Numbered from the stretch's first letter, positions 11,556-31,860 are shown. The stretch is 32,000 nucleotides of DNA from Rhodospirillaceae bacterium (GCA_963668495.1 OY764545.1:1188219-1220218), one strand, 5' to 3'. Numbers and translations: made by a program. The notes: generated by a model from the sequence alone, not told the origin.

Positions 11556-11644
11556 ATTCAGCTTAAAAAATTTAGCGCTGGTGTTGCTCAAGAGAGCACA
11601 TGAAGTGGGTTGCTCTGATTCAGTTACACAAAGCCAATCGGTTA

Positions 11645-12883: not shown

Positions 12884-13007
12884 TACCTCCTCCAATAAAT
12901 TTACAAGCCACTCAGCCAGGCAAGAAAATTTTATGTGAACTCAAAAAAACGAGTAGTAGATTAACACCAATGCCAAGCACTATGAAAGGACTTCTACAAC
13001 CGTCCCG

Positions 13008-14657: not shown

Positions 14658-14817
14658 GGGGATCGCAGCGCGGTGATAGTAACGAGCGCCACGACGATAG
14701 AGTCGTGTGTCCTAGCATCTTTTCCATGGCTCCAATGTAACAGTCCAATGGAACAACAGGAACAAGAAAGCTTTTTAAAACATCAAGTTATTGGAATTAT
14801 TGACCTTTGAAATGCAT

Positions 14818-14832
14818 TGGCGGAGAGAGAGG
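14818..14832 (-). other. 15-nt tRNA 3'-end-like sequence (TGGCGGAGAGAGAGG = reverse complement of ...CCTCTCTCTCCGCCA); possible att core next to the integrase
   Basis: Read directly. It is the reverse complement of an acceptor-stem 3' strand plus discriminator plus CCA, of the type I remember for tRNA-Ser. Similarity to a tRNA stops after 15 nt. It lies 107 nt from the 5' end of the 13008-14711 integrase frame, in the tRNA-then-int orientation. Confidence 0.3.
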
Positions 14833-15008
14833 CAGACCAATTCACGTTTGTGAGAGTTCGTCAGCGCGCAAGGCGTTAAAAATAACTAATATAAAACAAT
14901 GCTTTAGTATTTGTATGCGGTTGTAGGTGTTTGTAGAAAGATGCTTGCAATCTTGTTTTGATGATGGGACAGTTGTGGGGACAGATCAATCCCGAAAGTG
15001 AGTGTCTC

Positions 15009-16214
15009 ATGGCGAAACGTGTCAAACAGCTGACCGTCACCGAAGTCAAAAACTTCAAAACATCCGGCATGCATGCGGACGGAAATGGCCTTTATCTCAA
15101 GGTCAAAAATGCTGGCGCTAAATACTGGATTCTCCGTTATACGTTCGGCAGTAAACGCTTTGATATGGGGCTGGGGCGCTTTCCTGATGTTACCTTACAG
15201 GAGGCGCGTAGCGCAGCTGCGGAACAACGCAAGCTCATTCGCGACGGCATCAATCCCATCCGCTTACGGGAAGAGGAAAAAGAGCAGCAAAGAAAAGAGG
15301 AGCTGCGCCACACCACATTTCAGGAATGCGCCATTCAATATATCGAGGCTCACCGCCCAACCTGGAAGAACGCTAAACATGCCGCACAGTGGCGCAGTAC
15401 GCTGGAGGCACACGCCTTCCCAAATTTTGGCGACAAGCCAGTTGGAGACGTAAATAAAGACGACATCGTCAAAGCCCTGAAGCCGATTTGGCAAAGTCGA
15501 ACGGAAACCGCGACCCGTGTCCGTAGCCGTGTGGAACGTATTCTCGACTGGGCAACCGCCCATGATCTACGAGAAGGGGATAATCCGGCACGCGGCAAGG
15601 GCTTTATCTACACACTACTGGGCGACCCGACAAAGCTTAAAAAAGGCGGACACCATAGTGCTCTGGAGTACAAGCAGCTAGCGGATTTTATGGCCTGGTT
15701 GCAGCGTAAGGATACCATTGCTGCACGGGCGCTTGAGTTCACGATTTTGACAGCTGCACGTAGTGGGGAAGTGCTTGGTGCTCATTGGGATGAAGTGAAT
15801 TTTGAAGAGCAAACTTGGACAATCCCGCCGCTGCGCACCAAAACCAATCGCGAGCACGTTGTGCCGCTCACGGGACGGGCGCTGGAAATACTGGAAACCA
15901 TGCAAAAGCATCAGTTTGACAGTTGCATTTTCCCTGGTCGCAAACTGGATAAAGGGATGTCCAACATGACCATGTTCAACATCCTCAAGCGCGGTGATGC
16001 TAAGGAACTATGGGGCGACATCACCGTTCACGGTTTTAGGTCCACATTCAAGGACTGGGCTGCCGACTGCACCGACTACCCCAACGAGCTCAGCGAAATG
16101 GCACTAGGCCACGCCATCGGCAACAAGGTCGAAGCGGCCTACCGCCGTAAAACCATGCTGGAAAAACGCCGCGATATGATGAAATCCTGGGCAAACTTTT
16201 GCGCGGCCATTTGA
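15009..16214 (+). CDS. P4-family tyrosine integrase
   Basis: Track ORF 14958..16214. I prefer ATG at 15009 (MAKRVKQLTVTEVKNFK...). The N-terminal arm-binding pattern is LT...V.N.K..G...DG.GLYLKV...G.KYW..RY.F..KR....LG..P.V.L.EAR. The catalytic residues are R (TAARSGEVLGA), HxxR (HGFRSTFKDWA) and H..Y (LGHAIGNKVEAAYRR). Confidence 0.9.
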   Translation: MAKRVKQLTVTEVKNFKTSGMHADGNGLYLKVKNAGAKYWILRYTFGSKRFDMGLGRFPDVTLQEARSAAAEQRKLIRDGINPIRLREEEKEQQRKEELRHTTFQECAIQYIEAHRPTWKNAKHAAQWRSTLEAHAFPNFGDKPVGDVNKDDIVKALKPIWQSRTETATRVRSRVERILDWATAHDLREGDNPARGKGFIYTLLGDPTKLKKGGHHSALEYKQLADFMAWLQRKDTIAARALEFTILTAARSGEVLGAHWDEVNFEEQTWTIPPLRTKTNREHVVPLTGRALEILETMQKHQFDSCIFPGRKLDKGMSNMTMFNILKRGDAKELWGDITVHGFRSTFKDWAADCTDYPNELSEMALGHAIGNKVEAAYRRKTMLEKRRDMMKSWANFCAAI

Positions 16215-17510
16215 TTAAAAATACCGTTCACAGAAACACAAACAACCATCCGTACCGGCCAGATCATCGCAAAAGTCGACCCTGAGGACTAGCTGGTTTT
16301 TCATGTGCTCATCTACTTGATGAAATTCTATTTCATATCCATTCTCAACCATATTAATTACGGCTGGGTTTGGATGACCGTATGTATTTGGTCCACTTGC
16401 TGCGTACGCAATATTCAAGGCGTGCATTTTATCTAGTACACGAGATGAAAAGTTATCTTTTGCGCCGTGATGAGGCAACATAATGACAGACGTCACAGGT
16501 AAGAATTGTTCATAATATTTCAGAAAGCAACTACGCCTTCTCTTTGCGCCAAGATGCGCATCACCAGTAAGCATCCAACCCGTCATTTCATCCATATAGG
16601 TATGAAACAAGAATCTCCGTCTCCACGGAAATTTGTCATATATTCTTCTGCAAGAGGAGCCCAAATAACACATCGAATGTACCATTTGATCTAAATAACT
16701 ACCCACATGAGATGGATGCGGTCCGATATAAAGCGTCATAGAAACTAAATTATGATTTTTCCATATTGCATCATAACAATTACGCAGTTTTTTTCGACCA
16801 TCTTCGCTGCGAAGACTTTGAATTATTTCATTTTTATCGAGCGGTGACCCAAACTCTTTAGCCAAAGCTCGCTTAAAAGCATCCATGCGCTTCACGGTAG
16901 GTTGATGCACATATGGGATCAATAACCAGTCGACACCCCTGCTAACAGTAACACCTAATACAGAATCATTTGATTGAATCCTGGATTTGTCTTCGGCATT
17001 TACGTTTCCCTCACTAGAATGCCAGGCACTTCTCAATATTTTATCACCTCCTCCATCCGGAGGTATCGATGGAGTGGGCACTCCCTCTCCATCATCATCA
17101 TTACCCTTTCTGAAAGTCACCGTTTCAATCCCACGCTCTTTAAACCAAGCAACTGGATCCGTAGCAACATCAAGAAATATGCCTTTTAACTGAGCTTCTG
17201 TGTCATCTCTAGCAACAGCAGCAATCAACATCTCATCAGAAAAATATGGAAGTACGACCTCTTTTACTTTTACTCGAGACAGTAGCTCATCAAGACCAGA
17301 GACATGATCGCTATCAAGGTGAGAAATAAATAAATAATCTATATCACCTCCCCTAGAGATAGAATTGACTTCCCGTGTTAAGGCATCGCTTTGATTAGAA
17401 CCACAGTCATAGACCCACCGAAAGCCAACCCCATCCGCACTAATCGTGCCACTGAATAAACCGCCCTGCCCAACGGCATGCTGTATCAACTCCACATTAA
17501 TCACATTCAT
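16215..17510 (-). CDS. metallo-beta-lactamase-fold hydrolase (ComEC C-terminal-like), putative effector
   Basis: 431 aa. N-terminal H.VGQGG..........W.YDCG...... then DYLFISHLDSDHVSGL (the H-x-[DH]-x-D-H metal motif) and later MLPHHGAKDN. This is the pattern of ComEC-type MBL nucleases/hydrolases. Its ATG overlaps the upstream stop (ATGA at 17507-17510). Confidence 0.8.
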   Translation of the reverse strand: MNVINVELIQHAVGQGGLFSGTISADGVGFRWVYDCGSNQSDALTREVNSISRGGDIDYLFISHLDSDHVSGLDELLSRVKVKEVVLPYFSDEMLIAAVARDDTEAQLKGIFLDVATDPVAWFKERGIETVTFRKGNDDDGEGVPTPSIPPDGGGDKILRSAWHSSEGNVNAEDKSRIQSNDSVLGVTVSRGVDWLLIPYVHQPTVKRMDAFKRALAKEFGSPLDKNEIIQSLRSEDGRKKLRNCYDAIWKNHNLVSMTLYIGPHPSHVGSYLDQMVHSMCYLGSSCRRIYDKFPWRRRFLFHTYMDEMTGWMLTGDAHLGAKRRRSCFLKYYEQFLPVTSVIMLPHHGAKDNFSSRVLDKMHALNIAYAASGPNTYGHPNPAVINMVENGYEIEFHQVDEHMKNQLVLRVDFCDDLAGTDGCLCFCERYF

Positions 17511-18382
17511 TCAGCAAGCCCTTCATCTCCAAAGAAATCAGCACGAGCGCGATCCGTAGCTTCCTTACCCATCATACTGATATTTATGCGCTGATTATCA
17601 TGTATGCTGAGGCTGTTATCCAAAATCAGACCTGCTATATCGGTTAGAAAATAACGGGCGTGCATATCATTATCGTACTGCACCAAGTGTACCGAGAGAT
17701 GATCTGCCAATGGCCCTAATGTAAACATCTGCTTCATATTTCCCATAAAGCGTTGTTCATCCCCCATGCTGTATGGTGAACGGCCGCGTCCAGCAGATGT
17801 ACAAATCCTCAGCTCAATCTGGTCAGCATCTAAGCGGCGGTATAGAACCCTAAAGATCTCATCAAACAAGTCTCTGCACTGTTGTTGATACGGATCAAAG
17901 TAAGGATCTACGATATGAATTTGTTTTGCCATGGTGAGCAAAGGATGCAAGGCAGCCATCAAGTTAGGCAATGTTTTGATCATTACGTTCGGCATACTGA
18001 CTTTGATTAGCTCATGCCCATCATCAAGTTCTACGGAGCTAACAAAACCATCCCCATCTGCATCCGATAGGATTGCCTGAAACTTATGATCATCATGTGC
18101 TAAAGTTACATTGAACTGCCATGATTGGTTATGATCGTAGTCATAACTTCTATGAAAATCCTGCAAGCAGGCTTTCTGCTCAGCCATCTGCTTAAGCTTC
18201 TCTACCACACGAGCCTTATTCATCTGGCTTGCACTATCCGCAGCCTTTATGACTTTACGCTGCCATTTTTGAGGAAAAGCAGATATTCGACGCGGATTGC
18301 CAAAATCGAATAATGCGCTGATTAACTTAAGATTATTAAAGTCGGCTGCAAACTCAGGATCAACGGCATACTCTAATAACAT
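17507..18382 (-). CDS. hypothetical protein, 291 aa, middle gene of the ATPase/MBL operon
   Basis: Good RBS (GGAGGA 11 nt upstream). The start overlaps the ATPase stop (TAATG at 18380-18384). No family recognised. The C-terminal half (IHIVDPYF....ELRICT....HARYFLTDIAGLILDNSLS) reminds me of HxK-less PLD-like / MIT_C-like folds, but this is unverified. Confidence 0.7.
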   Translation of the reverse strand: MLLEYAVDPEFAADFNNLKLISALFDFGNPRRISAFPQKWQRKVIKAADSASQMNKARVVEKLKQMAEQKACLQDFHRSYDYDHNQSWQFNVTLAHDDHKFQAILSDADGDGFVSSVELDDGHELIKVSMPNVMIKTLPNLMAALHPLLTMAKQIHIVDPYFDPYQQQCRDLFDEIFRVLYRRLDADQIELRICTSAGRGRSPYSMGDEQRFMGNMKQMFTLGPLADHLSVHLVQYDNDMHARYFLTDIAGLILDNSLSIHDNQRINISMMGKEATDRARADFFGDEGLAE

Positions 18383-19812
18383 TAGAATAATTCCTCCGCA
18401 CGTTCATCGAAGAAGCCCGTTGGCCAACGTTTAGTGAATTCACCTGTTTCATCAATGCCTATATTGGTGACTTTCATCTCATCATTCTGACTTTCAAAGA
18501 ACAGGATGGATACATCACCGTGATTGAGTTCAGGGGCATGGTCAGAAACTTCACCTTCATAAGCCTCTCTGATGCGGCGAAGAAGTCGAAGGATTAAATG
18601 CTCACTATGCGTTTCAATGAGGAACAAGCAATCACGCTGGATTTGTGATGCAAAGAGATCTCCCAATCCAACTTGAACCTGCGGGTGGACATGCAGTTCA
18701 GGCTGCTCCACTGCCATAATGCGGGTGGATCGTGATAACGCACAAGCAACCACAGGAATAAGCTGAGACAAGCCGACACCGACATCTTGCAACGTGAATT
18801 CTCGATCTGTCCCAGGGTTTACGAGCCGCACCCGAGGCTGGCGAGCCATCAAGGACCGATCACTATTCAGAATACCTTTTACATTGCTGGAACGCGTATC
18901 ATAGAGGTTCAATCCATATCCAGCATTTAGGCGATATGACGGATACAGCCAACCTGACACTAAGCCCCCCAGGTCACTTTCCGTAGAGTGTAATAGCCGA
19001 TCCCATGCTCCTAAACCATTATACCAGCGGCTTTCAGGCATGGAGGAAAGCCCTTCAAAATTACGAGGGATCATTTCTCGGATGGGCCCGATATGCCGGA
19101 ATTTTTTTAGATAATCACAGAAAACTTCTCCTACGCTTACAAGAACTTGAGAAGCAACGTGATCGCCATATTCTAGATACTCATCCCCTGTGTCCTGGGC
19201 ATATTCCAGCTTGTGCCCCCACTTGGGCAGGACCGTGCGCAAATTTGAGATTTGAATTGGTATCCATGGAGAAAATGATTCCTCAACATCATCACCAAAA
19301 ACACGCTTCAAAACAGGGTGCGTAATATCATAATCAAAGAAAGTGTTCTGCTTGGGACCATTGGGCTGGCTAAGCTCAGACGCAAATTGACCATTTATAT
19401 CGACACGATAACGAATTGGCATCGGGCAATTATCAAGGTCACTCCAGCCCATAGTGACAATCACCTTAGCTGTATCAACATACTCGCTAATATCAATGTT
19501 CTCAGGGGCTCCATAGGTACGGAGATCCACGTCACTCATGTCCAATTCGAAGGCAAGTACGACTTGTCGATCAAGGTCACGGTTATGGACAAAGTTGCGG
19601 AAGCCGCCGAGGTTAATGCCGTCACCACCTTTTTCGGTAATATCCGGATCAAAGTTGCCATTCACCAAGATCTCATAGGCTAAATGCAGAGCATGGATGA
19701 TTGTGCTTTTGCCTGTGCTATTTGCACCAAACAGCAATGTGATCGGGCGGATTGGAATGCGGATTGTATCGCCAATCCCTTTGAAGTTTGTAATCTCAAT
19801 TGCTGTTAACAT
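18382..19812 (-). CDS. ABC-type AAA_15/AAA_21-family ATPase (PtuA/OLD-ATPase-like, no TOPRIM), probably with a DUF3696-like C-terminus
   Basis: 476 aa. N-terminal I.NFKGI......I.P.TLLFGANSTGKSTIIHAL (Walker A). Distal signature/Walker B block MAVEQPELHVHPQVQ and LFLIETHSEHLILRLLRRI. C-terminal WPTGFFDE. Confidence 0.85.
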   Translation of the reverse strand: MLTAIEITNFKGIGDTIRIPIRPITLLFGANSTGKSTIIHALHLAYEILVNGNFDPDITEKGGDGINLGGFRNFVHNRDLDRQVVLAFELDMSDVDLRTYGAPENIDISEYVDTAKVIVTMGWSDLDNCPMPIRYRVDINGQFASELSQPNGPKQNTFFDYDITHPVLKRVFGDDVEESFSPWIPIQISNLRTVLPKWGHKLEYAQDTGDEYLEYGDHVASQVLVSVGEVFCDYLKKFRHIGPIREMIPRNFEGLSSMPESRWYNGLGAWDRLLHSTESDLGGLVSGWLYPSYRLNAGYGLNLYDTRSSNVKGILNSDRSLMARQPRVRLVNPGTDREFTLQDVGVGLSQLIPVVACALSRSTRIMAVEQPELHVHPQVQVGLGDLFASQIQRDCLFLIETHSEHLILRLLRRIREAYEGEVSDHAPELNHGDVSILFFESQNDEMKVTNIGIDETGEFTKRWPTGFFDERAEELF

Positions 19813-20058
19813 AATCTATTACCCAACGAATTGTTCTAGGTCGCCATATGTTGATGGCTACAAGTGTGCCTAACTATATGCATTGTCATACTGCCACCTG
19901 AACTGATGGGCAGCAGGAACGGCAGCTAGTCCTACCTTCAGCATCAATAAACTTTAAGAACGCTACTCTTGAGGGAGAATGTAGCGCGACATATAAGGGT
20001 GCGCTTGATACCATACATTGCAATTAACATAACCGCCAGTTCGCGCACCAGGAGGGAC

Positions 20059-22122
20059 ATGTTTTATTTTCTGCCACGAGGGACAATTTCAGATTTTATC
20101 AAACTTGCATCTACTTTCGTGCACCTAATAACAGATGAGAACTGTAGGGATGTCAATGAAGAGGCCTATGAAGATGCAACGACACAGATAAAAGAAGTTT
20201 TACAACAGGATGAAGGTGACCCTGTAATTGCCATATTCCAACTGATGAAAACGCTAGAAATTGCAGTTCACACGGGTGATGTTTCAAAACACATATGGCT
20301 CTTAGCTGACACAATCCATTCTGCCGTTAACAGTTGTAAAGTATGCGCCTCATTAAAAGATAAAAAGTCTTGGGGTATTGCTTTGCAGCACGCTGTATCC
20401 GCAATAAACAGCACGCAAACAGATACCTCCATGTCTATGCAATGGAGAGGCTCGATTATTGCTAGCGAACTCGTAAGGCTAAAAAGGGTAGGAATTCCTT
20501 ATGAGATAGGTGAAGGCAACCGCTTCCTATCTGAAAAAAACACCAGGAGACTGTGCCTAAGAATTGAAAAGGATATAATAAAGGTTGGTGGGGAAGCTGC
20601 AGCTAACGCACTCCTAGATCTAATGCGTAGAAGCAATAGAATTCAACACGGAATGCTAATTCATGCGAGGAGCGTATCGCAGCTATATGGAAAGTCCAAA
20701 GCAGGCACACCATGGCATTATATCTACTCCCTTTGCATGAAGCACATTGATAAGCCGAACTCTTCTCGCGATCCCGCGAAAACAATGCAACATATGGAAG
20801 ATCTATCTGTTGCCTTGGCAGCAACTTATGATGTCGAAACGCATAGTGCGTACGAATACATGTCGATTTCACCTCATTCTTTTCTATGCATTCTCAGGGA
20901 AATGATTGTTTACGATGAGTTATTCGCATTCCCGCAGATGCATCCTAGAAGTGCTGCCTTTATCCTAAAAAATCTGCTTCCGGCGCTACAAAAACACAAA
21001 CTAGAGCTGCCTATTGCTAACGATGGAATCTGGAATAGTGTTTTTGAATGGGTACTTGAAGCATCCAATGGCGCATCCATCAAAGCTGTGCATCCCTTCC
21101 AGCTACCCATGAACAATGCCTCACAGGAGGCTCTTGATAAAATATTTGCTGCACTACTGCTGAAGCCATCAAAGCGGAATCAAAAATACCTAACCCCTAC
21201 AGATACTTTTGAAAGAACCAGCACATTTTTTCCCATTATTGAGAAAGATGCCTCAACATATTTAATTCAGCCAAAAGGGATTGCCTCACGCGCTCTTATT
21301 GAAAGGCTATTTGATCTTATTCGCACCCATAATGGCGAAGAAACAGACAAAAAAATAGGGTTTGCATTCGAGACTGTAACAGAGGCTATCCTCAAACATT
21401 TCAACCTAAATGTGACCTTTTCCAACGCGAAATACATTCCGAGCAAAGGGTTTGATGCTGAGATCGACTTCGTGATTGAAACGGATGAACGAATTTTCAT
21501 CATCGAATGCAAAAAGAAACCACTGAAAACCGCATCAAAAAGAGGTGAGTATCTAAGTCAGCTTGATGACTTCAATAAAAGTTATCTCAAAATGATGGAC
21601 CAGTTAACAAAGCATGAATTGTATTTGCGGGAAAATGGAAAAATCATTTTCTCTGATAAAACTGTCCTAGAGTTAAAAGGAAGAAGCATTGAAAAAATTG
21701 CACTGAGTCTGTTGGATCATGGCTCAATACAAGACAGAACGCTTGTTTCAGAAATTTTCCTTTCCCTTATGAATGCAAAGATGGGAGCAGAAAGAAAAGA
21801 AGCTGAGAAGATTATAAAAGTAACGAATAAGCTTCTGTCCTCACTGCAAAACACCATGGGGAATTTGGAATCTCTCCCACATGATTATGGAAAAGACTTC
21901 TGGCATGGCTACATGTTTTCAACCTGGTGGTTAAGCGCAGATCAACTCTTTTTCATTTTGGAGCAAAGCAATGATTTATGGAGTGGATTGCGGCGGATAC
22001 GGCATTTAACCTACAGAACATACGATTTCTTCTATGAATTCACACAAGCAGCAAAACTGGGGGAGATCTCCTCAACCCTTGTTACGCACGCAGAGAAAAC
22101 TTCAGCCAGGGCGCAGCTGTAA
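20059..22122 (+). CDS. large hypothetical protein with a C-terminal PD-(D/E)xK (NERD/restriction-endonuclease-like) motif
   Basis: Track ORF 19969..22122 (TTG start). I prefer ATG at 20059, directly after AGGAGGGAC. Nuclease-like core: GFAFETVTEAILKHF...GFDAEIDFVIETDERIFIIECKKKPL (E ... D ... E-x-K). The ~480-aa N-terminal part has no motif I recognise. Confidence 0.7.
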   Translation: MFYFLPRGTISDFIKLASTFVHLITDENCRDVNEEAYEDATTQIKEVLQQDEGDPVIAIFQLMKTLEIAVHTGDVSKHIWLLADTIHSAVNSCKVCASLKDKKSWGIALQHAVSAINSTQTDTSMSMQWRGSIIASELVRLKRVGIPYEIGEGNRFLSEKNTRRLCLRIEKDIIKVGGEAAANALLDLMRRSNRIQHGMLIHARSVSQLYGKSKAGTPWHYIYSLCMKHIDKPNSSRDPAKTMQHMEDLSVALAATYDVETHSAYEYMSISPHSFLCILREMIVYDELFAFPQMHPRSAAFILKNLLPALQKHKLELPIANDGIWNSVFEWVLEASNGASIKAVHPFQLPMNNASQEALDKIFAALLLKPSKRNQKYLTPTDTFERTSTFFPIIEKDASTYLIQPKGIASRALIERLFDLIRTHNGEETDKKIGFAFETVTEAILKHFNLNVTFSNAKYIPSKGFDAEIDFVIETDERIFIIECKKKPLKTASKRGEYLSQLDDFNKSYLKMMDQLTKHELYLRENGKIIFSDKTVLELKGRSIEKIALSLLDHGSIQDRTLVSEIFLSLMNAKMGAERKEAEKIIKVTNKLLSSLQNTMGNLESLPHDYGKDFWHGYMFSTWWLSADQLFFILEQSNDLWSGLRRIRHLTYRTYDFFYEFTQAAKLGEISSTLVTHAEKTSARAQL

Positions 22123-22200
22123 TCTGTAGCTAATTTGAGCTGTCGAAAATTAGAACTCTCCCGCTGAGCGTGTGGCAGGAATCAGGAGTCCATGCATTCC

Positions 22201-22325
22201 GATGGCTGATTTCGATGGGGTTTTCTGAACACTATTTTCTGCGGCAGGCAGGCGCAAAAAAAAGACGACCGCCCCACACGGGGGAGATCGCCCGAACCGT
22301 CTATAACCATAAGCCGCTCAGATTT
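22201..22325. repeat. copy B of the ~125-bp imperfect direct repeat (partner at 11433-11555)
   Basis: See copy A. It lies in the 233-bp convergent gap between the 20059-22122 gene and the RT gene, beginning 30 nt 3' of the RT stop. On the minus strand it contains AGACG...CCCC-cgtgt-GGGG...CGTCT followed by T8. Confidence 0.85.
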
Positions 22326-22355
22326 TTGCGACAAAAACAAAGCAGATACTAAGAA

Positions 22356-23828
22356 TCAACTTATGGCTTCTGCACGACGCTTAAGTTCCTGTAGAACTTC
22401 TCGATAACGAGTAATGTCAGCCCCTTCTTTCAGGGCCTCAAAGCTTGATAGGTAACTCATATATCCTGTCAACCGCCGGATCAGATCTGGAGACGGCTTT
22501 TCCTCTTTCCTCGCGTTATTAAACGCTGCGCGTATCCCTCTCCTAAAATCTCGTGGAGGCCGCGCTTGTTCATTAACCACAATTCCAGTGACCCTTTGCT
22601 GGCCATGAGCACTTACTATCCTGGTTTTCCGATCATTAATCTCTAGAGCAAAGCGTTCACGTAAAAGATCACGAGCGATACCAATTGCCTGCACAATCTC
22701 AGCTTTGTTGTCGCCGCTGACAGTCAGGTCATCTGCATATCGCGAGTATGTCAAACCGACCCCAGAACAATGAGAATCCATGATCACATCAAAATCATAA
22801 AGGTATGCATTTGACAGAACTGGACTTGTAGGCGCTCCCTGAGGCAAAACACCGTGAAATGTTGACAGCTTAACAAGTATTTCAGCGGAGCGATTGCTCA
22901 AGCCATAATCCATTAACATCCGGTGTATGTTCACAGATGTCACGCTGCCGAAGAAGTCAGAAATATCAACTCCGGCCACGAACTGCTTCCCCGTATGTAG
23001 TGATGCATTGGAGTTGATCGAACCACCAAGCCGATAGGAATGCACACTCTCATGCACAGGCAAGCAAATGTAATAATAGTCAGCTAAGAACTGCTGGATC
23101 ACCTTTAAGAAGGTACGAGGGCTGTTAATGCTCCGCTTGCCACCACCACGTTTAACGAGGTCAAACTGCCTATAGTGACGAGTGGGGGCAAAAGCAATCT
23201 GTGCGATTAGCCTCGGGGAAATACCAAGCATCAATCCTATCGTTTGATAGTCCAGCTCTAGTGCAGGAGCAGGCTTCAGGGAGGCAACTGCTAACTGGGT
23301 TATATTACTAAATGACAGAAACGGAAGAAAAGAGGGGCCATGTGAGGGCTGCGATTGACCAGTTTCATCTATCAACTGCATTGAGAAGCGAGGCCAATAA
23401 AGTTGGCCTTGAGGAAGCGAAAGACCGGCTTTATTGGCCTCGCGTCCTTTTATAAAGAATCTATCATCCACAGACGGCGCAACGCCGCCCAATTCAGATG
23501 CAACATCCTCACATGACTTTATCAGTCTACCTTCACGGGACCTTTTCAGCAAGTAGAGCCTAATCTTGTCACGAGACAACCTCTTACGTTTTGACAGATA
23601 GTTATTGCCATGATCTGTAAGGGTAAAGAGATCAGGGTCGCGAGAAACACGCACTAACCGCTTCTCTTTTTCTTGGATCATACACAGCTGCTGAAACAAG
23701 CTCACATCTGGAAGCTTCCCTGCTTCGTCAAAAACAAGCTCGAAATATCTTTGCACTTCGGCTGCTGCAACTGGCTGCAGAATACCAATAGCCCAAAGAA
23801 GCAGCTCCTGATTATAGACTGACTTCAT
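22356..23828 (-). CDS. retron-type reverse transcriptase with a ~215-aa N-terminal extension
   Basis: 490 aa. RT motifs: KRGGGKRSINSPRTFLKVIQQFL; retron-typical NAxxH (SINSNASLHTG); VAGVDISDFFGSV; LPQGAPTSPVLSNAYL; YADD box (SRYADDLTVSG); retron-typical VTG (QQRVTGIVVNE). AAGGAG RBS. The ATG overlaps the upstream stop (ATGA at 23825-23828). Confidence 0.85.
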   Translation of the reverse strand: MKSVYNQELLLWAIGILQPVAAAEVQRYFELVFDEAGKLPDVSLFQQLCMIQEKEKRLVRVSRDPDLFTLTDHGNNYLSKRKRLSRDKIRLYLLKRSREGRLIKSCEDVASELGGVAPSVDDRFFIKGREANKAGLSLPQGQLYWPRFSMQLIDETGQSQPSHGPSFLPFLSFSNITQLAVASLKPAPALELDYQTIGLMLGISPRLIAQIAFAPTRHYRQFDLVKRGGGKRSINSPRTFLKVIQQFLADYYYICLPVHESVHSYRLGGSINSNASLHTGKQFVAGVDISDFFGSVTSVNIHRMLMDYGLSNRSAEILVKLSTFHGVLPQGAPTSPVLSNAYLYDFDVIMDSHCSGVGLTYSRYADDLTVSGDNKAEIVQAIGIARDLLRERFALEINDRKTRIVSAHGQQRVTGIVVNEQARPPRDFRRGIRAAFNNARKEEKPSPDLIRRLTGYMSYLSSFEALKEGADITRYREVLQELKRRAEAIS

Positions 23829-24442
23829 AGGGTTCTCCTTGGCCTTCCCCTGCCATCTTTATCGATCATCGTTTTTCGAAGGTTGAATCGGTTGATTAGC
23901 GGCTTCACATCATACGTATTGTAGTTGACATATTCTGTCTGCCCAAAGGCTGCCACAATATTGGCAGGTCCCTCATTAAAGTAGCTCTTACTGTCCTTAT
24001 ACTTTTCGTCAACGAGTAGAATGAAGTCCTTCTCAGGACCGTTTTGTTTGATGGCTCCTTTTGGATGGGCAAAATGCCAACTAAACAAGCCTAGCTCACA
24101 GAACGCACCAATTGCTGTCTTTCCAGTCACAATAATTACGGCATCACAGTATTTTGCAATGTATTGAAGCTCATTGTCTTGTGCATCTTTACCAACATGA
24201 ATGCGTGGATTTTCAAGGCCGTCATCTTCGCCAAGAACAACATCAAAGCCATTTTGTTCCAGTTCATGCTTGATCTTAGCTCTAAGGATTGCGGCCTCAT
24301 CATGTCCTGGCCTTTCTGGGTCCTCAATGACATCCTTTATTGCAGGCCCACAAAGAAACACAATGAAAGGAGTGTCCTCTGATTCTTGCAATAACGCTTC
24401 ACGGTGCATTTTAAAGGTTTCGTCTTTAAACCCAGCGGGCAT
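23825..24442 (-). CDS. nucleoside 2-deoxyribosyltransferase-like (NDT/Rossmann-like) protein, putative retron effector
   Basis: About 205 aa. FIVFLCGPAI (compare the YLAGP N-terminal motif of NDT-like proteins) and CDAVIIVTGKTAIGAFCELGLFS (compare D.vv..l.....G...ElG.A). The gene order NDT-like then RT is that of type II (Sen2-like) retrons. ATG at 24442 shares its A with the hsdS TGA; the track's GTG at 24445 is the alternative start. The domain call is by eye only, and a TIR-like/SLOG fold is an alternative. Confidence 0.55.
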   Translation of the reverse strand: MPAGFKDETFKMHREALLQESEDTPFIVFLCGPAIKDVIEDPERPGHDEAAILRAKIKHELEQNGFDVVLGEDDGLENPRIHVGKDAQDNELQYIAKYCDAVIIVTGKTAIGAFCELGLFSWHFAHPKGAIKQNGPEKDFILLVDEKYKDSKSYFNEGPANIVAAFGQTEYVNYNTYDVKPLINRFNLRKTMIDKDGRGRPRRTL

Positions 24443-25629
24443 CACAAGTCTCCACGAAATGCGCGTTGGGAGAGGGACGAAAACAACTGATCACATGCTT
24501 CAAGGTCAGTTGAAAGTTTGACCCCAAGAAGCCGAACTTTATCAACGATCCGTCTATATTCTTGCTGTAGCTCAATAGGCGGGATCGTAATACGAATTTC
24601 CTGAACTTCTTGCGCGTTGATATTCGCCATACCCACGATATTTTTGCACATCCCTCTTAGAGTCGCCTTGCCGTGGTTTGAATTTAAATACCCTGATATG
24701 TAGTACGGATCAGCCAGATCGTTGGCTCTCATACGAACGAGATAACCAGCAAAAGCGTATTGCTCATCTCGATCAAATACAGCCGTTTTTCCTACAAGTT
24801 CCTTGCTATTCGTTCTGTTAAACAGGATATCGTCTGCACTAACGAGGTACTTACTATGTTCATGCTCAGGAAGATCAATGTACTTTAAATCAGATGTATC
24901 AATCCTGCCTTCATAGGTCAGGTTTCCCATCCTTAGAATTGGGAATTGCCCGTTTTGCACATCGGCCTTTGCTGAGGTCCCGTACTTTGCCTCAGAAACA
25001 AGATCTCTAATCGTGCCCATTGGCCAGCCTTTTGGGTTCGTCACAGGATCGCCGAACATGTCGAGGAAGGTTGCGCGAAGGAAATCGTCGGCCAGTTGTA
25101 GGGCTTGCTGGCGTTTGCGGCGGATGGCGTCGGCCTTATCCAAAATCGCAGCAATCCGCTTTTGCTCTTCGAGAGGGGGCAAAGGAATCTGCAAATCTGC
25201 TAGCTTTGCTTTGTTGAGCGTTTTGCCCATAACAGCCCGGTCAGTCCCTTGCATTAGGTCAATGACCTGCAATGACCAATAAAGATATTTTGCATCAAGT
25301 AAGGTGCCGTTCTTAATTGGAAGAGCCGCGATTGCCTCATTGGTGTAAATTGGCACCCCAGAAATAGCTACCTTTCCAATTGATAATTTAAAGCTTAACA
25401 GCACCGTTCCAGCCGAAACAATTTTACAGTTGCATTCCTCAACTGCTGCGTCAGAGATGCGCTCCTTCGTACGGGAAACACACTCGTCACCTTTCATATC
25501 GGAAATAGCTAACCACGGGTTAGCCCCACCCCAATATCTTGTTTCGTTCCTTGATGGTGTTTTACCTATGTTTATTTCGCATAGGTCAGCTAGACGACAC
25601 CCCTTCCAACCATATTTTTTTGTGCTCAC
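24442..25629 (-). CDS. hsdS: Type I restriction-modification specificity subunit
   Basis: 395 aa. Two target-recognition halves are separated by the conserved central helix ([44 protein letters not shown]). The protein ends with the conserved distal helix ([16 protein letters not shown]...[14 protein letters not shown]). The GTG start overlaps the hsdM stop (GTGA at 25626-25629). Confidence 0.92.
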
Positions 25630-27140
25630 CCCAGCATCTCCTCAAGGTCTTGCATGTCTTGAGCGATATCGGCGTGAAGGGCCTTCATACGAGCAAGGAT
25701 TTCCTGCGGTGGATCGTATTCTTCTTCCTCGTACACCACTTCTTTGTAACGGCTGAGGGAGAGGTCGTATTTTTTGGCCTTGATCTCCTCGGCTGACACA
25801 AAGAACGCTTTGCTGCTTTTATCTGTATCGTTCTGTGGATCGCGCTCTTGCCAGCGTTTCAAGCAGTCGGGTAGATCGTTCTCTGCCACTTTCTCCCGCT
25901 TATCATCAAGACTGAAACCATCGGCCTGCACATCATAGAAAAACACGTTGTCCGTCTGACCGCCTTTGGTGAAAACCAAGATAGCAGTGGAAACACCTGC
26001 GTAGGGCTTGAACACACCAGACGGCAGCGAGATCACAGCCTCCAGCTGGTTTTGCTCGATCAGCATTTGCCGCAAAGCCTGATGCGCCTTGGAAGAGCCA
26101 AACAATACACCATCTGGCACAATGGTTGCTGACCGTCCGCCCAATTTCAGCATCCGCAGGATCAGAACGAGAAACAGCAGTTCCGTCTTTTTAGTTTTGA
26201 CGTTGGCCAGCAAGCTAGGGTGGACATCATCGTAATCGAGGCTGCCCTTAAACGGTGGGTTGGCAAGGACCACATCCAGACTGTCATTGGCAAACTGCGG
26301 GAAACGATCCGGGAAGTTGTTGGCCAGCGTATCTTGATAGTGAATATCCGGCGCATCCACACCATGCAGTAACAGATTCATGGCGGCAATGCGCAGCATG
26401 GTGGCATCAAAGTCAAAACCATGAAACATGCCCCGGCGCATATGCTCCCGCGCCTCGTCACTCAGCAAGTCCCCGGTGTAGGTGGTTTCATCGGTCACTT
26501 CGTCAACGATAACACCCTCCGGTGAGGTGTTCTTCCTCACCAGGTACTTGGCAACCTCCACCAAGAAACCAGCCGTGCCACAAGCCGGATCACCAACAGT
26601 TTCCATGGGTTGCGGCGCAACGATGTCGATCATCAGGTCAATGATATGACGCGGTGTGCGGAACTGACCGTTGATGCCTGCAGTGGTCAGTTTGCTCAAC
26701 AGGTATTCGTACAGGTTGCCTTTGGTGTCTTCATCGCCCAGTGGCAGATCGTCGATCATCTCCACCGCCGAAACCAACAGGCTCGGCTTTTGGATCATCA
26801 ACTGGGCATCTTTCATGTATTCGCCAAAGGTCGCCCCGTCGACCATGGTGGTCCTGAAGTGCGGGAAGACCCGATCCCGGACCAGTGGCATCAGTTGCTC
26901 TGCGCCCATGTGACGAAAATTGGACCACCGCAGGTCTTGATCCTCTGGCCCGAATAGACGCGGGAAGTCCTTACCGGACAGGCGAGCCTTTTGCTCGTTC
27001 TTGATTTCGGTCATATCCAAGTGGCGGGCAAACATCAGGAAAGTGATCTGCTCGATCACCGTCAACGGATTGGCAATGCCGCCCGTCCAAAATTCGGTCC
27101 ACAGTTTGTCGATACGACTGCGCAAATCACCTGTAATCAT
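25626..27140 (-). CDS. hsdM: Type I restriction-modification N6-adenine DNA methyltransferase subunit
   Basis: 504 aa. HsdM N-terminal domain ([25 protein letters not shown]). SAM motif ([12 protein letters not shown]). Catalytic NPPF ([10 protein letters not shown]). The ATG overlaps the hsdR stop (ATGA at 27137-27140). Confidence 0.96.
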
Positions 27141-30100
27141 TGGAGGGTACTTTCATCACTACTACTGTTGAGGTTGCCTTGCGGCTTAAACGTTTTGACA
27201 ACGTTCAGCAAGTCCTGACGTTGTTCATCGTTCGGGAATAGACCAAATACGCCCAGTTGATCCAGTTTAGTGAACGGAGAGTCAACCAGCTGCTCAACCT
27301 CAACACTGCCGTTCTGGGCAATCAAGCGTTCCAGAAGGCGTAAAAACTGGGTTTGCTTGGCGCTGAGCGAAGGGTTGCGATGGACAAACTCCTGGAACCG
27401 ATCCCGCACCGCGTCCACATCCATGCCAATGATGTTACGGATAATCAGGTCCAGATGATCAGCTAGATCCGGGTAGAACTCCCGCAGAATATTCAAATCC
27501 ACATCCGGGTGTTCGGTCAAAACCATGGAGATCAAACGATCAAGGTCGGTTTGTGATACGGGTTGCCCTGCCCGGATCTTCTGCAAAGTCGGATCTTTAT
27601 CAAACAGCGCGCTCAGGGCTTCTTCTACCCGTTTGCGGTAAACAGCCTGATCAATGGAGATGAGCCCTGTTGTCGTCTGTCCTGTTCGGATGCCATCCGG
27701 GTCTTCCTCAATATCGATAACCTTTGGCGTGATGGGTTTTGCCGAAGATGTGTCCTGATACTGCATAATGGATCGCAGCTCTGTCCGTACGTTTTCCAGC
27801 TGTGCCAGCGAAACCGCAGCCCAGAACGGGCCAGACTTCACTTGCTTGATGGTTTCCGCTTTGGCCTTGACCTGATTGAGGTTCATACGCAAGCGGTTGA
27901 CAGCGTTCAGCAGATCGCCCTTAAGACCCTCAAAGGCTTGTGTTTGCTGGATCAGGGCGGTTTGCATCTGGGTCATCAAAAGGTCAAAACCATAGGCGTC
28001 GCTTTGTCCACGGATATTGATCCACTGCGTCAGGGGGCTGATCTCTGCCCGTAGGGCCTGCACAGTCATGGGGTCAAATCGCTCGATCACGCCTTGTTGT
28101 TGGATGGTTAGGACTTCCTGCCACTTTTCCCGCACAGCAATACTATCCGCAGGCAGACTGTTAACGTCCTGCTCCAGCAGCTTTACCGTGTTGTTGAAAG
28201 AGTCCAGTTCCGGTGCGTTCAGGGCGGCCTCAGCCAAATCAATCCGTGCGTTGAACAGGCGTTGCATCAAAGACGTTGGGGCTGATGGTTCGGCTTCCGG
28301 CTTGTTCTGCTCGAAGTACTCGAAATTTGCCCAATGGTCAAAAATGCGGAATACGGACTTATCAAGTCCCGGACCAAACAAATCTTCACATAGGCGAGTG
28401 CCACGTCCGATCATCTGCCAGAACTTGACCTTGGACTTCACAGGCTTGGCAAAGACCAGGTTGACCACTTCCGGTACATCAATGCCCGTATCCAGCATGT
28501 CCACGGAGATCGCGATGGTCAGATCCTTGTTGTTGCCATCACCTTTGAAATCATCAATCAGCTGCTCTGCACGAGGATCATGATTATCGATGACCTGACA
28601 GAACTTACCGCCATACTGCGGGTAGAGTTCGTTGAATAACTTCTCCAGTATCTTGGCATGGGTATGCCTGCGGGCAAAAATGATGGTTTTCCCAGGAAGT
28701 TGTCCGCTGGCGTCGCGGATACCATTTTCCATCAGGTTACGGATGATGTGGCGACCCGTGTCTTTATTGAATACTTTGTTGTCAACTTCATTGGCCTCAT
28801 GGTCCAAATCTTCATCGGCTTCGCCATCTTCCTCAAGCTGTGCCTTTTGCTCATCGGTCAGGTCTTTGTAGTGGATGCCATCACGCAGGAATTTGGTGGT
28901 GTGGGTGAAAACCTCATAGGGCACCAGCCACTCGTCCTTAACCGCATCTTCCAATGCGTAAAAGGCGGTGGGGTCCTGATTACTACAACCAAACAAACCA
29001 TATGTATTGCGAGAGATGAACTCGACAGGGGTTGCCGTCAGGCCAACCTGAAGCGCATCGAAATATTGGAAAATCTGACGGTAGCGATTGTAGATGCTGC
29101 GGTGGCTCTCATCGGCAATAACCAGATCAAAGAACCCCACATCAAACGCCTGAAAGATCGACTGCATGGCCGGATATGTGGCGACAAAGATGCGGCTCGT
29201 GTTGTCGTTTACAGACCTGCGCGAGACCACAGTCAGCGGTTCGCTCATGTTGTCGTTGAAAGCGTTCTTGGCCTGCTTCACCAATTCCTTACGATCACAG
29301 AGGAACAGAATACGTTTTGCCCAGTTTGCCCGCACCAACAAGTCCGTTAATGCAATGGCAACGCGGGTTTTCCCTGTGCCTGTGGCCTGAACGATCAAAG
29401 CTTTTCTGTGCTTGCTGCTGAAATTCTCACAGACGCGCTTGATGGTTTCGACTTGGTAGATCCGCCCGGCGATTTCTGCTTTTGGCGTGAAGGTATCAAG
29501 CTGCGCCTTATTGCTGCGCTGAAACTTGGCAAGATTGTGTAGGCTAGACTTGGAATAGAAGCCGAACAAAGGACGCGGAGGATAGCCCTGCGCATCATCC
29601 CAGATCCAAGTGTTGTAACCGTTGGTGTAAAAGATGACTGGGCGAAAGCCGTAGGTTTTCTCTAATCCCTCGGCATACAGCTCTGCTTGTTTACGGCCTT
29701 TCTCCTCGGACACGGATGTTTTCTTGGCCTCGATCACAGCCAGCGGCAAACCATCATCATCCCACAGCACGTAGTCGATATAGCCAATGCCCGTTGGATT
29801 GGGCTGGTGTTCGACTTTTTGCTCCAGCGTAACTTGATCCGGCTTATTGATATCCCATCCAGCCTCTGCCAGCGCCACGTCAATCAAACGCTTACGGGTT
29901 GTGGCTTCATCATACTGGAGTGCATCAGCAACCATCTGACTTTTGGCGGTGGTTTCGGCTTCAACAGCTAAGGCTTCATAATCTGCTTTGACCTTTTCAA
30001 GTGCAGCCAGTGCTTCCTCTAACCTAGCTTCGGTTGCCTTTTGCTCTTCAACGGCAGTGACCGCCTCGGCCTGCTGGTCTTTCGGCTGCTGGAATTTTGC

Positions 30101-30493
30101 AATGTCTCGCGGTTGTTGCCCTAGGCACCGCACAGCAAACCAGGCTGACGCCTCGAACAGCTCCTGAACAATCCAAAGGGCAGCTTGCGTTTCAACAGTC
30201 CCACCGTGGGCGGCCTTGTTGCCCTCTTTACGGGCGGCATGGAGTTTGTTGCGGATGACCGGGGGAACTGCGCTTTCAAAAGGCTTGGTGCGGAGGAGTT
30301 CGTCGAAAGTTGCACCTTGCGCCTTTTCGAGTCTCAGTTCCCAGTAGATGGCTTTGGTCAACTGTTCGGCAAGGGTGCGTAGTTTAACAAGGGCGCTAGC
30401 GGGATCTGCGTGGGCGTACTGTTCAGCAAAGCCGCCCAAATCAGCCAAGATCGGGCGATCCTTACGCAGGATCTCGAAATTCACAGACTCCAT
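27137..30493 (-). CDS. hsdR: Type I restriction enzyme R (endonuclease/helicase) subunit, with a DUF4145-like N-terminus and an EcoEI-R-type C-terminal region
   Basis: About 1118 aa. PD-(D/E)xK nuclease ([22 protein letters not shown]). SF2 motor: Walker A ([13 protein letters not shown]), DExH ([10 protein letters not shown]), later motifs ([13 protein letters not shown]). Track start GTG at 30496. The adjacent ATG at 30493 is better spaced from GGGGGA. Confidence 0.96.
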
Positions 30494-30788
30494 CACATCC
30501 CCCAGCAGACAAACTTAATACGGCAGACTATCACCAAACTCAGTGGTTGTGAAACGTCTTAGAATGCATGTGCTTAGCCGACATTCATCCCATTACAGAT
30601 AGATATTACTACCCTGAAGGCGCTGGAGGTTTGGCTTTGGCGTCGTGATGCCCTTTCTGGCGGAGGCCGGGAAGGGCTTTTATATGGAGGCTGTAATGGC
30701 GATGATGTCCATCCCGACGGCTCTGGTATTGGCGAAGCTGGTGCTGGAAGCCGCCGAAGAACTTACCAAAGACGATATCTAATCTACC

Positions 30789-30826
30789 GCACCCTCGGCC
30801 ATATGGCCGGGGGTGCTAGCTTTTTT
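30789..30826 (+). terminator. strong Rho-independent terminator
   Basis: 12-bp stem GCACCCTCGGCC-atat-GGCCGGGGGTGC (one G-U pair), then tagc + TTTTTT (30821-30826). It sits 7 nt after the stop of a possible 44-aa ORF and 23 nt before the start codon of the CobS-like gene. Confidence 0.7.
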
Positions 30827-30849
30827 GCACAAATTAATAGGAGGCCAAT

Positions 30850-31860
30850 ATGGCTGAAGATAAACCCACCGCCATCACGGCGGAGGATGAATTGACGCGC
30901 CTGCAACCCATGGATATGGATGCAGGTGTTTTGTTTAGCGGGCAAACATCGGGTCGCATGATTAAGGGCTATGACCGTGTCTGCACTTACACCCCGGCGG
31001 TGGATCTCAACTATGTATTTCACGACACCATGAGGGAAATTGTGGTGTGGCTGATGTCGCCGTCAGATCCGCTGTATGTGTTCGGACCAACTGGCTCCGG
31101 CAAGACCAGTTTGATCCGTCAGTTGGCTGCCAAGCTGAATTACCCGGTGTTTGACGTTACCGGACATGGTCGATTGGAGTTTGCCGATCTGGTTGGCCAC
31201 ATGACCGTTATCGACGGTTCCATGCGCTTTGAACATGGACCGTTAGCCTTGGCTATGAATCACGGCGGATTGTTCTTATTGAATGAAATCGACCTACTGG
31301 ATCCGGCGACACTGACTGGCCTCAATGGTGTGCTCGACGGCGATCCGTTGTGCATTCCGGAAAATGGCGGTGAGGTGATCAAGCCGCATCCCATGTTCCG
31401 CCTAGTCGCCACCGCCAATACCAATGGCGCGTCAGATATCTCGGGCATGTATCAGGGAACACTACGCCAGAACCTCGCCTTCATGGATCGGTTCTGGCTG
31501 TGTGAAGTCGGCTATCCTGAACCGGATACCGAGCTTACCTTGTTAGAGAAAGTCGCCGGCGATCTACCGTCTGAGATTCGCTCTCGTATGGTCGATTACG
31601 CCAACGAAGTGCGGGAGCAGTTCATTGGTAATGGCGACACCCTCAGCTTTGCCGACCGTATCGAAGTCACGTTTTCCACTCGTACCCTACTGCGTTGGGC
31701 CGACCTAACCCTACGCTTCCAACCTTTGTCGTTACAGGGGATTTCCCCTGTGACCTATGCACTGGATCGTGCGTTAGGTTTTCGTGCCTCACCTGAAACT
31801 CGCGCCATGCTGAACGAGTTGGCACAGCGCATCTTTAGCACATCCAGCGAACCTGACTAA
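30850..31860 (+). CDS. CobS/MoxR-like AAA+ ATPase (mobile-element-associated type)
   Basis: 336 aa. AGGAGG RBS. Walker A (FGPTGSGKTS). Walker B (GLFLLNEIDLL). Sensor region (RLVATANT). The overall pattern matches the CobS-like ATPases that travel with vWA/CobT-like partners on phages and integrative elements. Confidence 0.8.
   Translation: MAEDKPTAITAEDELTRLQPMDMDAGVLFSGQTSGRMIKGYDRVCTYTPAVDLNYVFHDTMREIVVWLMSPSDPLYVFGPTGSGKTSLIRQLAAKLNYPVFDVTGHGRLEFADLVGHMTVIDGSMRFEHGPLALAMNHGGLFLLNEIDLLDPATLTGLNGVLDGDPLCIPENGGEVIKPHPMFRLVATANTNGASDISGMYQGTLRQNLAFMDRFWLCEVGYPEPDTELTLLEKVAGDLPSEIRSRMVDYANEVREQFIGNGDTLSFADRIEVTFSTRTLLRWADLTLRFQPLSLQGISPVTYALDRALGFRASPETRAMLNELAQRIFSTSSEPD

Follow-up and report, generated by a model that had tools for sequence, protein, structure and literature searches.

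In a 32,000-nucleotide (nt) stretch of DNA from a Rhodospirillaceae bacterium (GCA_963668495.1, OY764545.1:1188219-1220218; the window in what follows), a Type I restriction-modification (R-M) operon passes through overlapping stop and start codons into a retron of type II-A2, made up of a gene for a nucleoside deoxyribosyltransferase (NDT)-like effector and a gene for a reverse transcriptase (RT). The retron non-coding RNA (ncRNA) of this system, as judged from its covarying structure, is carried within the RT open reading frame (ORF). An original prediction made from the sequence alone had recognised the five-gene unit and had missed this RNA component. We document here the identities of the genes, the overlaps at their junctions, the covariation of the embedded RNA, the bounds of a portable retron cassette and its recurrent adjacency to Type I genes. 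The retron may be a back-up to the Type I enzyme in which perturbed multicopy single-stranded DNA (msDNA) would release the NDT-like effector, a reading that we prefer to its rivals and regard as evenly poised between right and wrong; a functional partnership of the retron with R-M is plausible, given the comparative data and the methylation triggers known for type II-A retrons.

Type II-A2 retrons, Type I R-M systems and the concept of abortive infection (Abi) effectors in hsd loci are already known. We could not find described the recurrent, often translationally coupled association of II-A2 retrons with Type I genes, nor a retron ncRNA that forms the linker-coding part of an RT frame; the literature texts (for Mestre et al. 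2020, the text alone) held no description of retron-hsdS linkage or of an in-ORF retron ncRNA.

Identity of the retron and its junction with hsdS

Five co-directional ORFs run along the minus strand from 30496 to 22356, at the coordinates first given for them: hsdR (27137-30496, 1119 amino acids [aa]), hsdM (25626-27140, 504 aa), hsdS (24442-25629, 395 aa), the NDT-like gene (23825-24442, 205 aa) and the RT ORF (22356-23828, 490 aa), which encodes in order a winged-helix domain, an ncRNA-encoded linker and the RT domain. Each junction is a start/stop overlap that can be read directly in the sequence: ATGA between hsdR and hsdM (27137-27140), GTGA between hsdM and hsdS (25626-25629), TGATG between hsdS and the NDT-like gene (24440-24444) and ATGA between the latter and the RT ORF (23825-23828). 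The NDT start (ATG, 24442) agrees with the alignment of homologues from residue 1 and with the public gene call, likewise of 205 aa, and AAGGAG stands 7 nt ahead of the RT start.

The RT matches the PADLOC model RT_II-A (PDLC02940) over practically its full length (residues 1-485 on profile positions 1-475 of 477, E 9e-141), with 468 bits against 214 for the next type, and the models of all other retron types match it only from about residue 195 on. Type II-A2 RTs belong to clade 1 of the retron RT phylogeny, a placement for which this best-scoring model is our proxy. Its translation holds the retron-diagnostic motifs that had been reported, NASLH of region X (NAxxH) and RVTGIVVN of region Y (VTG), together with YADD; residues N274, A275, H278, Y364-D367 and V413-G415 are invariant among 27 RT homologues. 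Compared with solved structures, the sequence is closest to the retron RTs Ec78, Ec86, Ec67, Kva2 and Ec83 (E about 1e-27), while RTs of group II introns and of defence-associated RT (DRT) systems score 1e-6 or worse. The AF2 model (predicted TM-score [pTM] 0.81) leads to the same family, the top 13 Foldseek matches all being retron RTs (TM 0.77 to 7v9x_A). The protein is thus a retron RT and not one of a group II intron or a diversity-generating retroelement.

The 205-aa protein proved NDT-like, as proposed. It matches PADLOC NDT_II-A (E 1e-31) and carries a precomputed annotation as Pfam PF28093 (STM3845), and a 30-sequence family profile matches the NDT-like domain of the Ec86/St85 effector (7v9x_C residues 26-162, E 8e-08). 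Foldseek matches to an AF2 model (pTM 0.82) are headed by three N-glycosidases of the NDT superfamily, MilB, DNPH1 and Rcl, at low scores; the fold search, too, points weakly to the NDT superfamily rather than to an unrelated fold. E116, which lies in the ELGLF motif, is invariant among effector homologues. With its 205 aa the effector lacks a C-terminal winged-helix domain, and the profile covers just residues 26-162 of the 307-aa Ec86 effector.

A DNA/RNA-binding domain is instead predicted at the N-terminus of the RT (residues 1-100, 23529-23828, minus strand), where AF2 and DSSP give an H-H-H-beta-beta winged-helix topology for residues 7-100 with a predicted local distance difference test (pLDDT) score of about 90, and where coding periodicity is normal. 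This domain is conserved across all RT homologues; there are some 1,700 full-length ones of 480-500 aa, each with the N-terminal domain and the RT. At the level of sequence, a profile of the N-terminal extension matched nothing among solved structures, and a search detected no homology of the winged helix to the C-terminal domain of the Ec86 effector.

These features are those of type II-A2, in which, according to the text of the classification paper, the NDT effector has no DNA-binding domain and that domain sits on the RT N-terminus (PMC7736814; Mestre et al. 2020, NAR). The NDT+RT pair is consequently a type II-A2 retron, with both ORFs intact and all catalytic motifs present. The original assignment to a type II (Sen2/Eco1-like) layout was right about an NDT+RT retron pair and is refined here, the layout not being that of Sen2/Eco1 as such. 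Eco1 (Ec86, II-A3) and Sen2 (St85, II-A1) share with the window the NDT-like effector domain, the retron RT fold and an RNA with a1/a2 repeats and a long stem; however, their ncRNA is intergenic and their DNA-binding domain is on the effector, whereas in the window the RT ORF encodes both, the ncRNA within its coding sequence and the domain as part of the RT. Measured against type II-A2 as the text of Mestre et al. describes it, the window RT fits the RT_II-A model full length, and its cassette is additionally overlap-coupled to hsdS.

The partner of this retron is a Type I system that is predicted to be complete, since HsdR, HsdM and HsdS each match Pfam and PADLOC models full length. HsdR carries Pfam ResIII, HSDR_N, EcoEI_R_C (C-terminal) and DUF4145 (N-terminal) and matches PADLOC REase_I (PDLC03047) with E 6e-298. 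HsdM is a Type I N6-adenine DNA methyltransferase (Pfam N6_Mtase and HsdM_N; PADLOC MTase_I, E 1e-181). HsdS is a specificity subunit with two target-recognition domains (TRDs) and a complete C-terminus, matched by Pfam Methylase_S in two stretches and by the PADLOC profile Specificity_I at residues 8-395 (profile positions 3-392 of 392).

A retron RNA inside the RT frame

Retrons are defined by an msr-msd RNA with terminal inverted repeats a1 and a2, one or more short msr hairpins and a long msd stem-loop (PMC7736814, in its text). An RNA with the same order of parts as this canonical layout lies on the minus strand at 23337-23517, within codons about 104-164 of the RT ORF, where it is defined by covariation and by a covariance model (CM). 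Its a1 arm (GTCATGTGAGG, 23507-23517) pairs with the a2 arm (CCTCACATGGC, 23337-23347) in a closing stem with double-sided changes at 12 of 13 pairs (helix 1). Between the arms, all on the same strand, lie an msr-like 8-bp hairpin, GGGCGGCG-TTG-CGCCGTCT (23472-23490, helix 2), 99% paired and with 3 covarying pairs; a long msd-like stem-loop of about 27 bp (23384-23447, helix 3), in which 18 of 27 pairs show double-sided changes; and, between the long stem and a2, a short 5-bp hairpin, CAGTT...AACTG (23360-23378, helix 4), in which four of the five pairs covary. We take the element, on the strength of its conserved architecture, to be an msr-msd-like retron RNA; its long stem-loop is presumably the template for the msDNA stem, and an invariant G at 23501, 5-6 nt past a1, is a candidate for the branching G of the msDNA.

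The first sign of this RNA is a hairpin with 26-nt arms inside the N-terminal extension of the RT, conserved in position and not in sequence in every homologue examined. At the same place L001 has a perfect stem of 31 bp and L002 one of 22 bp, and both nucleotides and amino acids differ. Folds of the surrounding 390 nt in eight homologues all share one architecture, made up of a long-range closing stem, a hairpin of 7-8 bp, a long hairpin and one of 5 bp, which spans about 180-190 nt (ORF nt about 306-505). RNAalifold, applied to a plain MAFFT alignment of the eight sequences, found 53 pairs, 30 of them with compensatory double changes. The proportion of paired cells was 89%, compared with 35-43% when the 3' partners were slid, and the 30 covarying pairs compare with 5-8 in slid alignments and 12.5±2.3 in shuffled ones (0/500 shuffles reached the observed number).

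A CM built from these eight sequences gave full-length, sense-strand matches in five held-out loci (L092, L094, L098, L099 and L103; 112-193 bits), always at RT nt about 302-502. In the window it found a single sense-strand site, 23327-23527 on the minus strand, with 200 bits, a score as high as that of any family member. An alignment of 13 sequences, which was fitted to the CM and hence leans towards the structure, showed 91.4% paired cells against 37-42% when slid and 37 of 53 covarying pairs against 9-16, again reached by 0/500 shuffles. Rfam searches of the window at the gathering threshold and at E <= 10 returned no retron msr family, the matches being to tRNA or due to chance.

Other places for the ncRNA were considered and rejected. 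The 353-bp gap upstream of hsdR (fold z = -1.2 relative to shuffles) and the 233-bp gap after the RT (z = 0.07) hold no CM match, and the DNA ahead of NDT in free-standing relatives, where an ncRNA in the manner of Sen2 could lie, shows no sequence conservation and gave unconvincing candidates with an a1/a2 heuristic.

One segment as RNA and as linker

None of the 12 full-length RT sequences with available DNA has an in-frame stop, the ORF around the RNA segment thus being kept open, and the pattern of substitution in the segment departs from that of the flanking domains. Mean pairwise differences at codon positions 1/2/3 are 0.49/0.35/0.67 in the winged-helix domain and 0.42/0.32/0.67 in the RT domain, compared with 0.35/0.36/0.37 in codons 104-164. 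RT residues 102-166 have an AF2 pLDDT of 25-56 and lie between two confident domains, and the peptide encoded by the ncRNA segment is predicted to be a disordered linker. Because the segment lacks codon periodicity and has low pLDDT, the linker motifs REANK and GQxYWPRFS are most simply explained as by-products of RNA constraint; GAGGCCAATAAAG is the reverse complement of CTTTATTGGCCTC. Here one sequence clearly doubles as structured RNA and as coding sequence, with constraint acting at the level of nucleotides rather than codons.

An unfused and more distant relative, L003 (from a Terriglobia metagenome-assembled genome, 8897-11065), consists of an NDT homologue (hhalign 98.7%), a separate winged-helix ORF of 98 aa (88%, E 3e-6), the same RNA element in an intergenic position (42 bits with the CM) and an RT of 347 aa. 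The fused II-A2 ORF likely evolved by way of, or from, a locus of this kind.

No statement of an in-ORF position of the ncRNA was found in the literature texts, among which the classification paper (Mestre 2020) is represented by its text alone and could depict it elsewhere. With the template RNA inside the RT frame, ncRNA searches confined to intergenic DNA would miss II-A2 retrons. Furthermore, msDNA synthesis would consume the mRNA of the RT itself, which could be a built-in feedback, and for engineering purposes the editable msd stem of II-A2 retrons lies in coding sequence.

A portable cassette that recurs beside Type I genes

The bounds of the mobile unit can be read from two related loci, the hsd-linked L092 and the free-standing L085, whose RTs are 80% identical and whose nucleotide similarity extends from the NDT start codon to near the RT stop. 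These bounds define a cassette of NDT plus RT, with the ncRNA inside, of about 2.1 kb that needs nothing upstream. Since the ncRNA is in the ORF and no upstream non-coding DNA is needed, such a cassette can be coupled in translation to any gene ahead of it, here to hsdS by overlapping stop and start codons. Composition within the window agrees with a joint history of these genes. G+C content at third codon positions (GC3) is 0.60 in hsdR, 0.65 in hsdM, 0.46 in hsdS, 0.41 in NDT and 0.44 in the RT ORF; the AT-richer 3' part noticed by eye is thereby borne out, the break being sharpened to between hsdM and hsdS, and suggests that hsdS and the retron arrived together.

Genomic context was compiled for 16 II-A2 lineages. 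Type I genes adjoin the retron in five of them, and in four of these the NDT start lies within 8 nt of the hsdS stop. Besides the window, with hsdR-hsdM-hsdS-NDT-RT and overlaps at all junctions, these are L092 (with L093 and L088), where Mrr_cat-hsdR-hsdM-74 aa-hsdS(815 aa)-NDT-RT follow one another and hsdS and NDT overlap by 8 nt; L103 (with L104 and L105), where hsdR-hsdM-hsdS(589 aa)-NDT-RT has a gap of 1 nt; L099-L102, where a 308-aa half-HsdS (PADLOC Specificity_I, E 6e-80) ends 7 nt ahead of NDT and neither hsdM nor hsdR occurs within 8 kb; and the P0006 locus, where NDT-RT is followed on the same strand, after 200 nt, by hsdM-hsdS-hsdR. The hsd proteins of the window share only 25-30% identity with those of L092 and L103. 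The latter two belong to one family (hsdR 60%, hsdM 64%), and the L099 HsdS is different again, with 25-30% identity among the partners of the window, of L092/L103 and of L099. The hsd-linked II-A2 lineages therefore involve at least three unrelated hsdS partners.

As background, ten hsd proteins taken from four loci served as queries against 78 retron loci of other types than II-A2 (1.13 Mb) and detected no relative of hsdM, hsdS or hsdR in any of them (0/78). These loci came from a scan of genome contigs with generic YADD/VTG motifs, whose yield was mostly of other retron types, the only II-A2 members being L001 and L002. The difference between 5/16 and 0/78 is significant (Fisher one-sided, p = 8e-5; 0.006 on the most conservative count). 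Adjacency to hsd genes is thus not peculiar to the strain in which it was first noticed, while conserved synteny, for which the original prediction had proposed a search, is not seen, given nine free-standing lineages and linked ones that are not monophyletic. As for the wider distribution, a metagenome scan with the N-extension profile gave 6 loci, a scan of viral contigs gave none, and no full-length II-A2 member was found in E. coli genomes, plasmids and phages.

Several loci deserve a remark of their own. The ORFs directly 3' of the RT in L092, L103 and L099 were considered as further parts of the system and discarded, being mutually unrelated and not present in the window. The 815-aa HsdS of L092 (4941-7388) is covered by specificity models at residues about 1-580 and carries a C-terminal extension of about 235 aa directly ahead of NDT. 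In L002 (8757-10004), a 415-aa NDT_II-A protein has an inserted or N-terminal LmuA-like region (E 1e-16) and may be the protease-bearing II-A2 variant that the text of Mestre et al. mentions. In L094, a Metallophos protein and a 901-aa SMC-like ATPase (PADLOC LmuB, E 1e-15) stand ahead of the II-A2 cassette.

Possible function of the coupled retron

Abi effectors within hsd loci have two precedents. PrrC is an anticodon nuclease and Abi effector in the EcoprrI Type IC hsd locus that acts as a back-up once a phage disables restriction, and prrC lies directly 3' of hsdS. It is a single ATPase-nuclease physically bound to the R-M enzyme, in contrast to the three-component retron of the window, known here from its sequence. 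In Ronin, Ocr, ArdA and Aop1 set off the RonA toxin, which is tightly linked to an hsdS/hsdM decoy (Silas et al. 2023 preprint); some Ronin loci are without hsdR, which parallels the orphan half-hsdS with its retron in L099. RonA, a membrane toxin of 61 aa, comes with neither RT nor RNA, whereas the window has a complete hsdRMS. Like these systems, the window places an Abi-type effector in an hsd locus, joined by a start/stop overlap to hsdS, and the adjacency recurs in four other lineages. If borne out, the link would put a retron on the short list of hsd-embedded back-up effectors that includes PrrC and Ronin.

To our knowledge, few retrons have a known trigger, and none of type II-A2 does. 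The recurrent, coupled link to Type I genes leads to a concrete hypothesis on what II-A2 retrons sense, namely escape from, or inhibition of, restriction. Eco1 and Sen2 are the experimentally established model for an effector that RT-msDNA restrains and msDNA methylation sets free. The RT-msDNA complex of Ec86 binds the NDT-like effector, with the msDNA stem in contact with the NDT domain, and nucleoside depletion is activated once a phage Dcm methylates that stem (10.1101/2023.08.16.553469). The trigger of the Asa1 and Squ1 retrons is a phage N6-adenine methyltransferase (PMC12548924), and the authors of the Ec86 study regard methyltransferases of both kinds as phage anti-restriction devices (10.1101/2023.08.16.553469).

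By analogy, all five genes of the window would be transcribed from a promoter upstream of hsdR, and the RT would make msDNA by copying the long stem of the msd that lies within the mRNA. The RT-msDNA complex, together with the tethered winged helix, would keep the NDT-like effector inactive, as in Ec86 and Sen2. The retron would then act as second-line abortive infection against phages that escape the Type I enzyme. Its likeliest trigger would be an anti-restriction activity of the phage by which the msDNA stem is altered or sequestered, such as the DNA methyltransferases that act on Ec86, Asa1 and Squ1, and the released effector would deplete nucleotides or nucleosides. Linkage to hsd would let first-line and back-up defence be co-expressed and co-inherited.

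A number of observations weigh against this back-up reading. Nine of the 16 II-A2 lineages are free-standing, with upstream gaps of their own of 140-540 nt, so that a II-A2 retron does not need hsd. In one lineage (L094, 3457-9464) the cassette follows a Lamassu-like SMC ATPase with a gap of 13-23 nt, so that hsd is not the sole host operon to which it is coupled. L092 and L103 may share descent and are possibly not independent, and the 16 lineages are a small, metagenome-heavy sample whose loci were picked by how long their contigs are. Solved NDT-family enzymes match the fold of the effector weakly (E about 5e-3). Finally, a methylation-sensing retron in this locus must avoid triggering itself, because HsdM is itself an N6-adenine methyltransferase.

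The variety of contexts fits an account in which retron and R-M are independent: a promoterless cassette in no need of non-coding DNA ahead of it would survive only at the 3' end of an expressed operon, and hsdS would be a favoured site because recombination between hsd loci often exchanges hsdS alleles, with which the cassette would spread. The portable unit is exactly NDT plus RT; it is found behind a Lamassu-like ATPase, near PD-Lambda-4 and free-standing as well as beside hsd, and its hsd-linked RTs are not monophyletic. If an hsdS-NDT-RT block had been replaced, GC3 would be expected to break between hsdM and hsdS as it does, and the orphan half-hsdS with its retron in L099 resembles such a block in transit. 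However, the strong Type I enrichment relative to other retron types (0/78) speaks against hitch-hiking of this kind, attachment at the 3' end of hsdS leaves the P0006 geometry, with the retron upstream of hsdM, unexplained, and, since the triggers known for II-A are anti-restriction activities, selection would have grounds for keeping the two together. We consider hitch-hiking somewhat unlikely as the whole explanation. Repeated placement right after hsdS, together with the orphan half-hsdS, argues for more than chance.

The position next to hsdS could also reflect a direct guard, the main idea of the original prediction, or a decoy, in the manner of PrrC-EcoprrI and Ronin, in which cognate HsdMS would bind or methylate the msDNA stem or dock the retron, and a block of the Ocr/ArdA/Stp type would free the effector. 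It is after hsdS, and not after hsdM or hsdR, that the NDT start falls within 8 nt of a stop in four lineages; in one of them a half-hsdS with no hsdM or hsdR nearby has the look of a decoy, and translational coupling would fix the stoichiometry of the partners. There is precedent in PrrC and Ronin, and type II-A retrons are proven to take methylation of their msDNA stem as an input. Yet hsd genes are absent beside most II-A2 retrons, and the linked L092 and the free L085 have almost the same long stem, with no partner-specific adaptation of it visible. The base of the stem is conserved while three HsdS proteins are unrelated in their TRDs, and this speaks against the idea that each HsdS recognises the stem in a site-specific way. 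What counts against an obligate HsdS-specific sensor in particular is that the stem hardly differs between linked and free relatives and that so many members stand free, and we hold the direct guard to be unlikely.

Just as doubtful, in our estimate, is the bolder proposal that II-A2 retrons are dedicated partners of Type I enzymes. The msDNA stem would here be a surrogate substrate or docking site for HsdS/HsdM that reports either a methyltransferase core inhibited by DNA mimics or foreign methylation and so sets off NDT-mediated abortive infection, and the in-ORF ncRNA would let the sensor be welded to hsdS and travel with hsdS alleles.

We judge it highly improbable that the RT or its cDNA acts as a modulator of the R-M complex, as the original prediction had offered in the alternative, or that the retron is a decaying remnant. 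Co-location, the one point in favour of either, is nothing specific; no known retron acts on an R-M enzyme, and decay is at odds with two intact ORFs that retain their catalytic motifs, an ncRNA scoring 200 bits and an effector in which the invariant residues are present.

Transcription unit and genomic surroundings

With overlaps at all junctions there is no room for a promoter or terminator between hsdR and the RT ORF, as had been noted, and scans with promoter and terminator consensus sequences found sites inside the operon no more numerous than in shuffled sequence. We infer that the five genes form a single transcription unit read from a promoter upstream of hsdR. The presumed promoter region is 30497-30849 (minus strand), the sole sizeable non-coding stretch on the 5' side; a consensus promoter scan gave no minus-strand match within it, and a second assembly retains it alongside the hsd module, the similarity reaching window position 31062. 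At the other end, the minimum free energy fold of 22123-22355 contains a terminator-like hairpin (8+4 bp) followed by U7 at 22256-22293 on the minus strand, 63-100 nt past the RT stop. This hairpin, absent from the list of the consensus terminator scan, is the presumed end of the unit.

In the second assembly (L091, 6079-12078, corresponding to window 25064-31062) the hsd module is 99.97% identical and the upstream context differs beyond 31062; a 1-nt indel shortens the hsdS call to 97 aa, and the contig stops inside hsdS. No contig turned up when the RT and hsdS proteins were looked up by exact match. The N-terminal accessory domain of HsdR (about 200 residues) does not occur in the HsdR of L092 or L103; residues 2-198 match DUF4145 and also the candidate defence protein PDC-M16A (E 5e-33).

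The gap upstream of hsdR separates it from a divergent gene for an AAA_5/CbbQ-type ATPase (30850-31860, plus strand). In it sit two strong G+C-rich hairpins with T-runs on the plus strand (30650-30677 and 30789-30816), where no plus-strand gene ends.

On the far side of the operon, a tRNA gene (10749-10822, plus strand) follows dnaG-rpoD, after which G+C content falls from 0.54 to 0.45 (10823-22355), and two integrase genes lie at 13008-14657 (minus) and 14958-16214 (plus). The tRNA gene, the drop in G+C and the two integrases place the retron-hsd operon in a tRNA-adjacent genomic island. A three-gene, overlap-coupled operon at 16215-19812 (minus strand), probably a further defence system, codes for an AAA_15/DUF3696 ATPase (18382-19812; PADLOC NsnB, E 7e-44), a 291-aa protein that matched no family (17507-18382) and a metallo-beta-lactamase-fold protein with weak matches to LmuA, PDC-M48B and RTasMBL (16215-17510). 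Convergent with the RT ORF is a gene for a 717-aa protein with a NERD nuclease-related domain (19969-22122, plus strand), and the II-A2 retrons of L099-L102 and L092 are likewise flanked by NERD and Mrr_cat genes.

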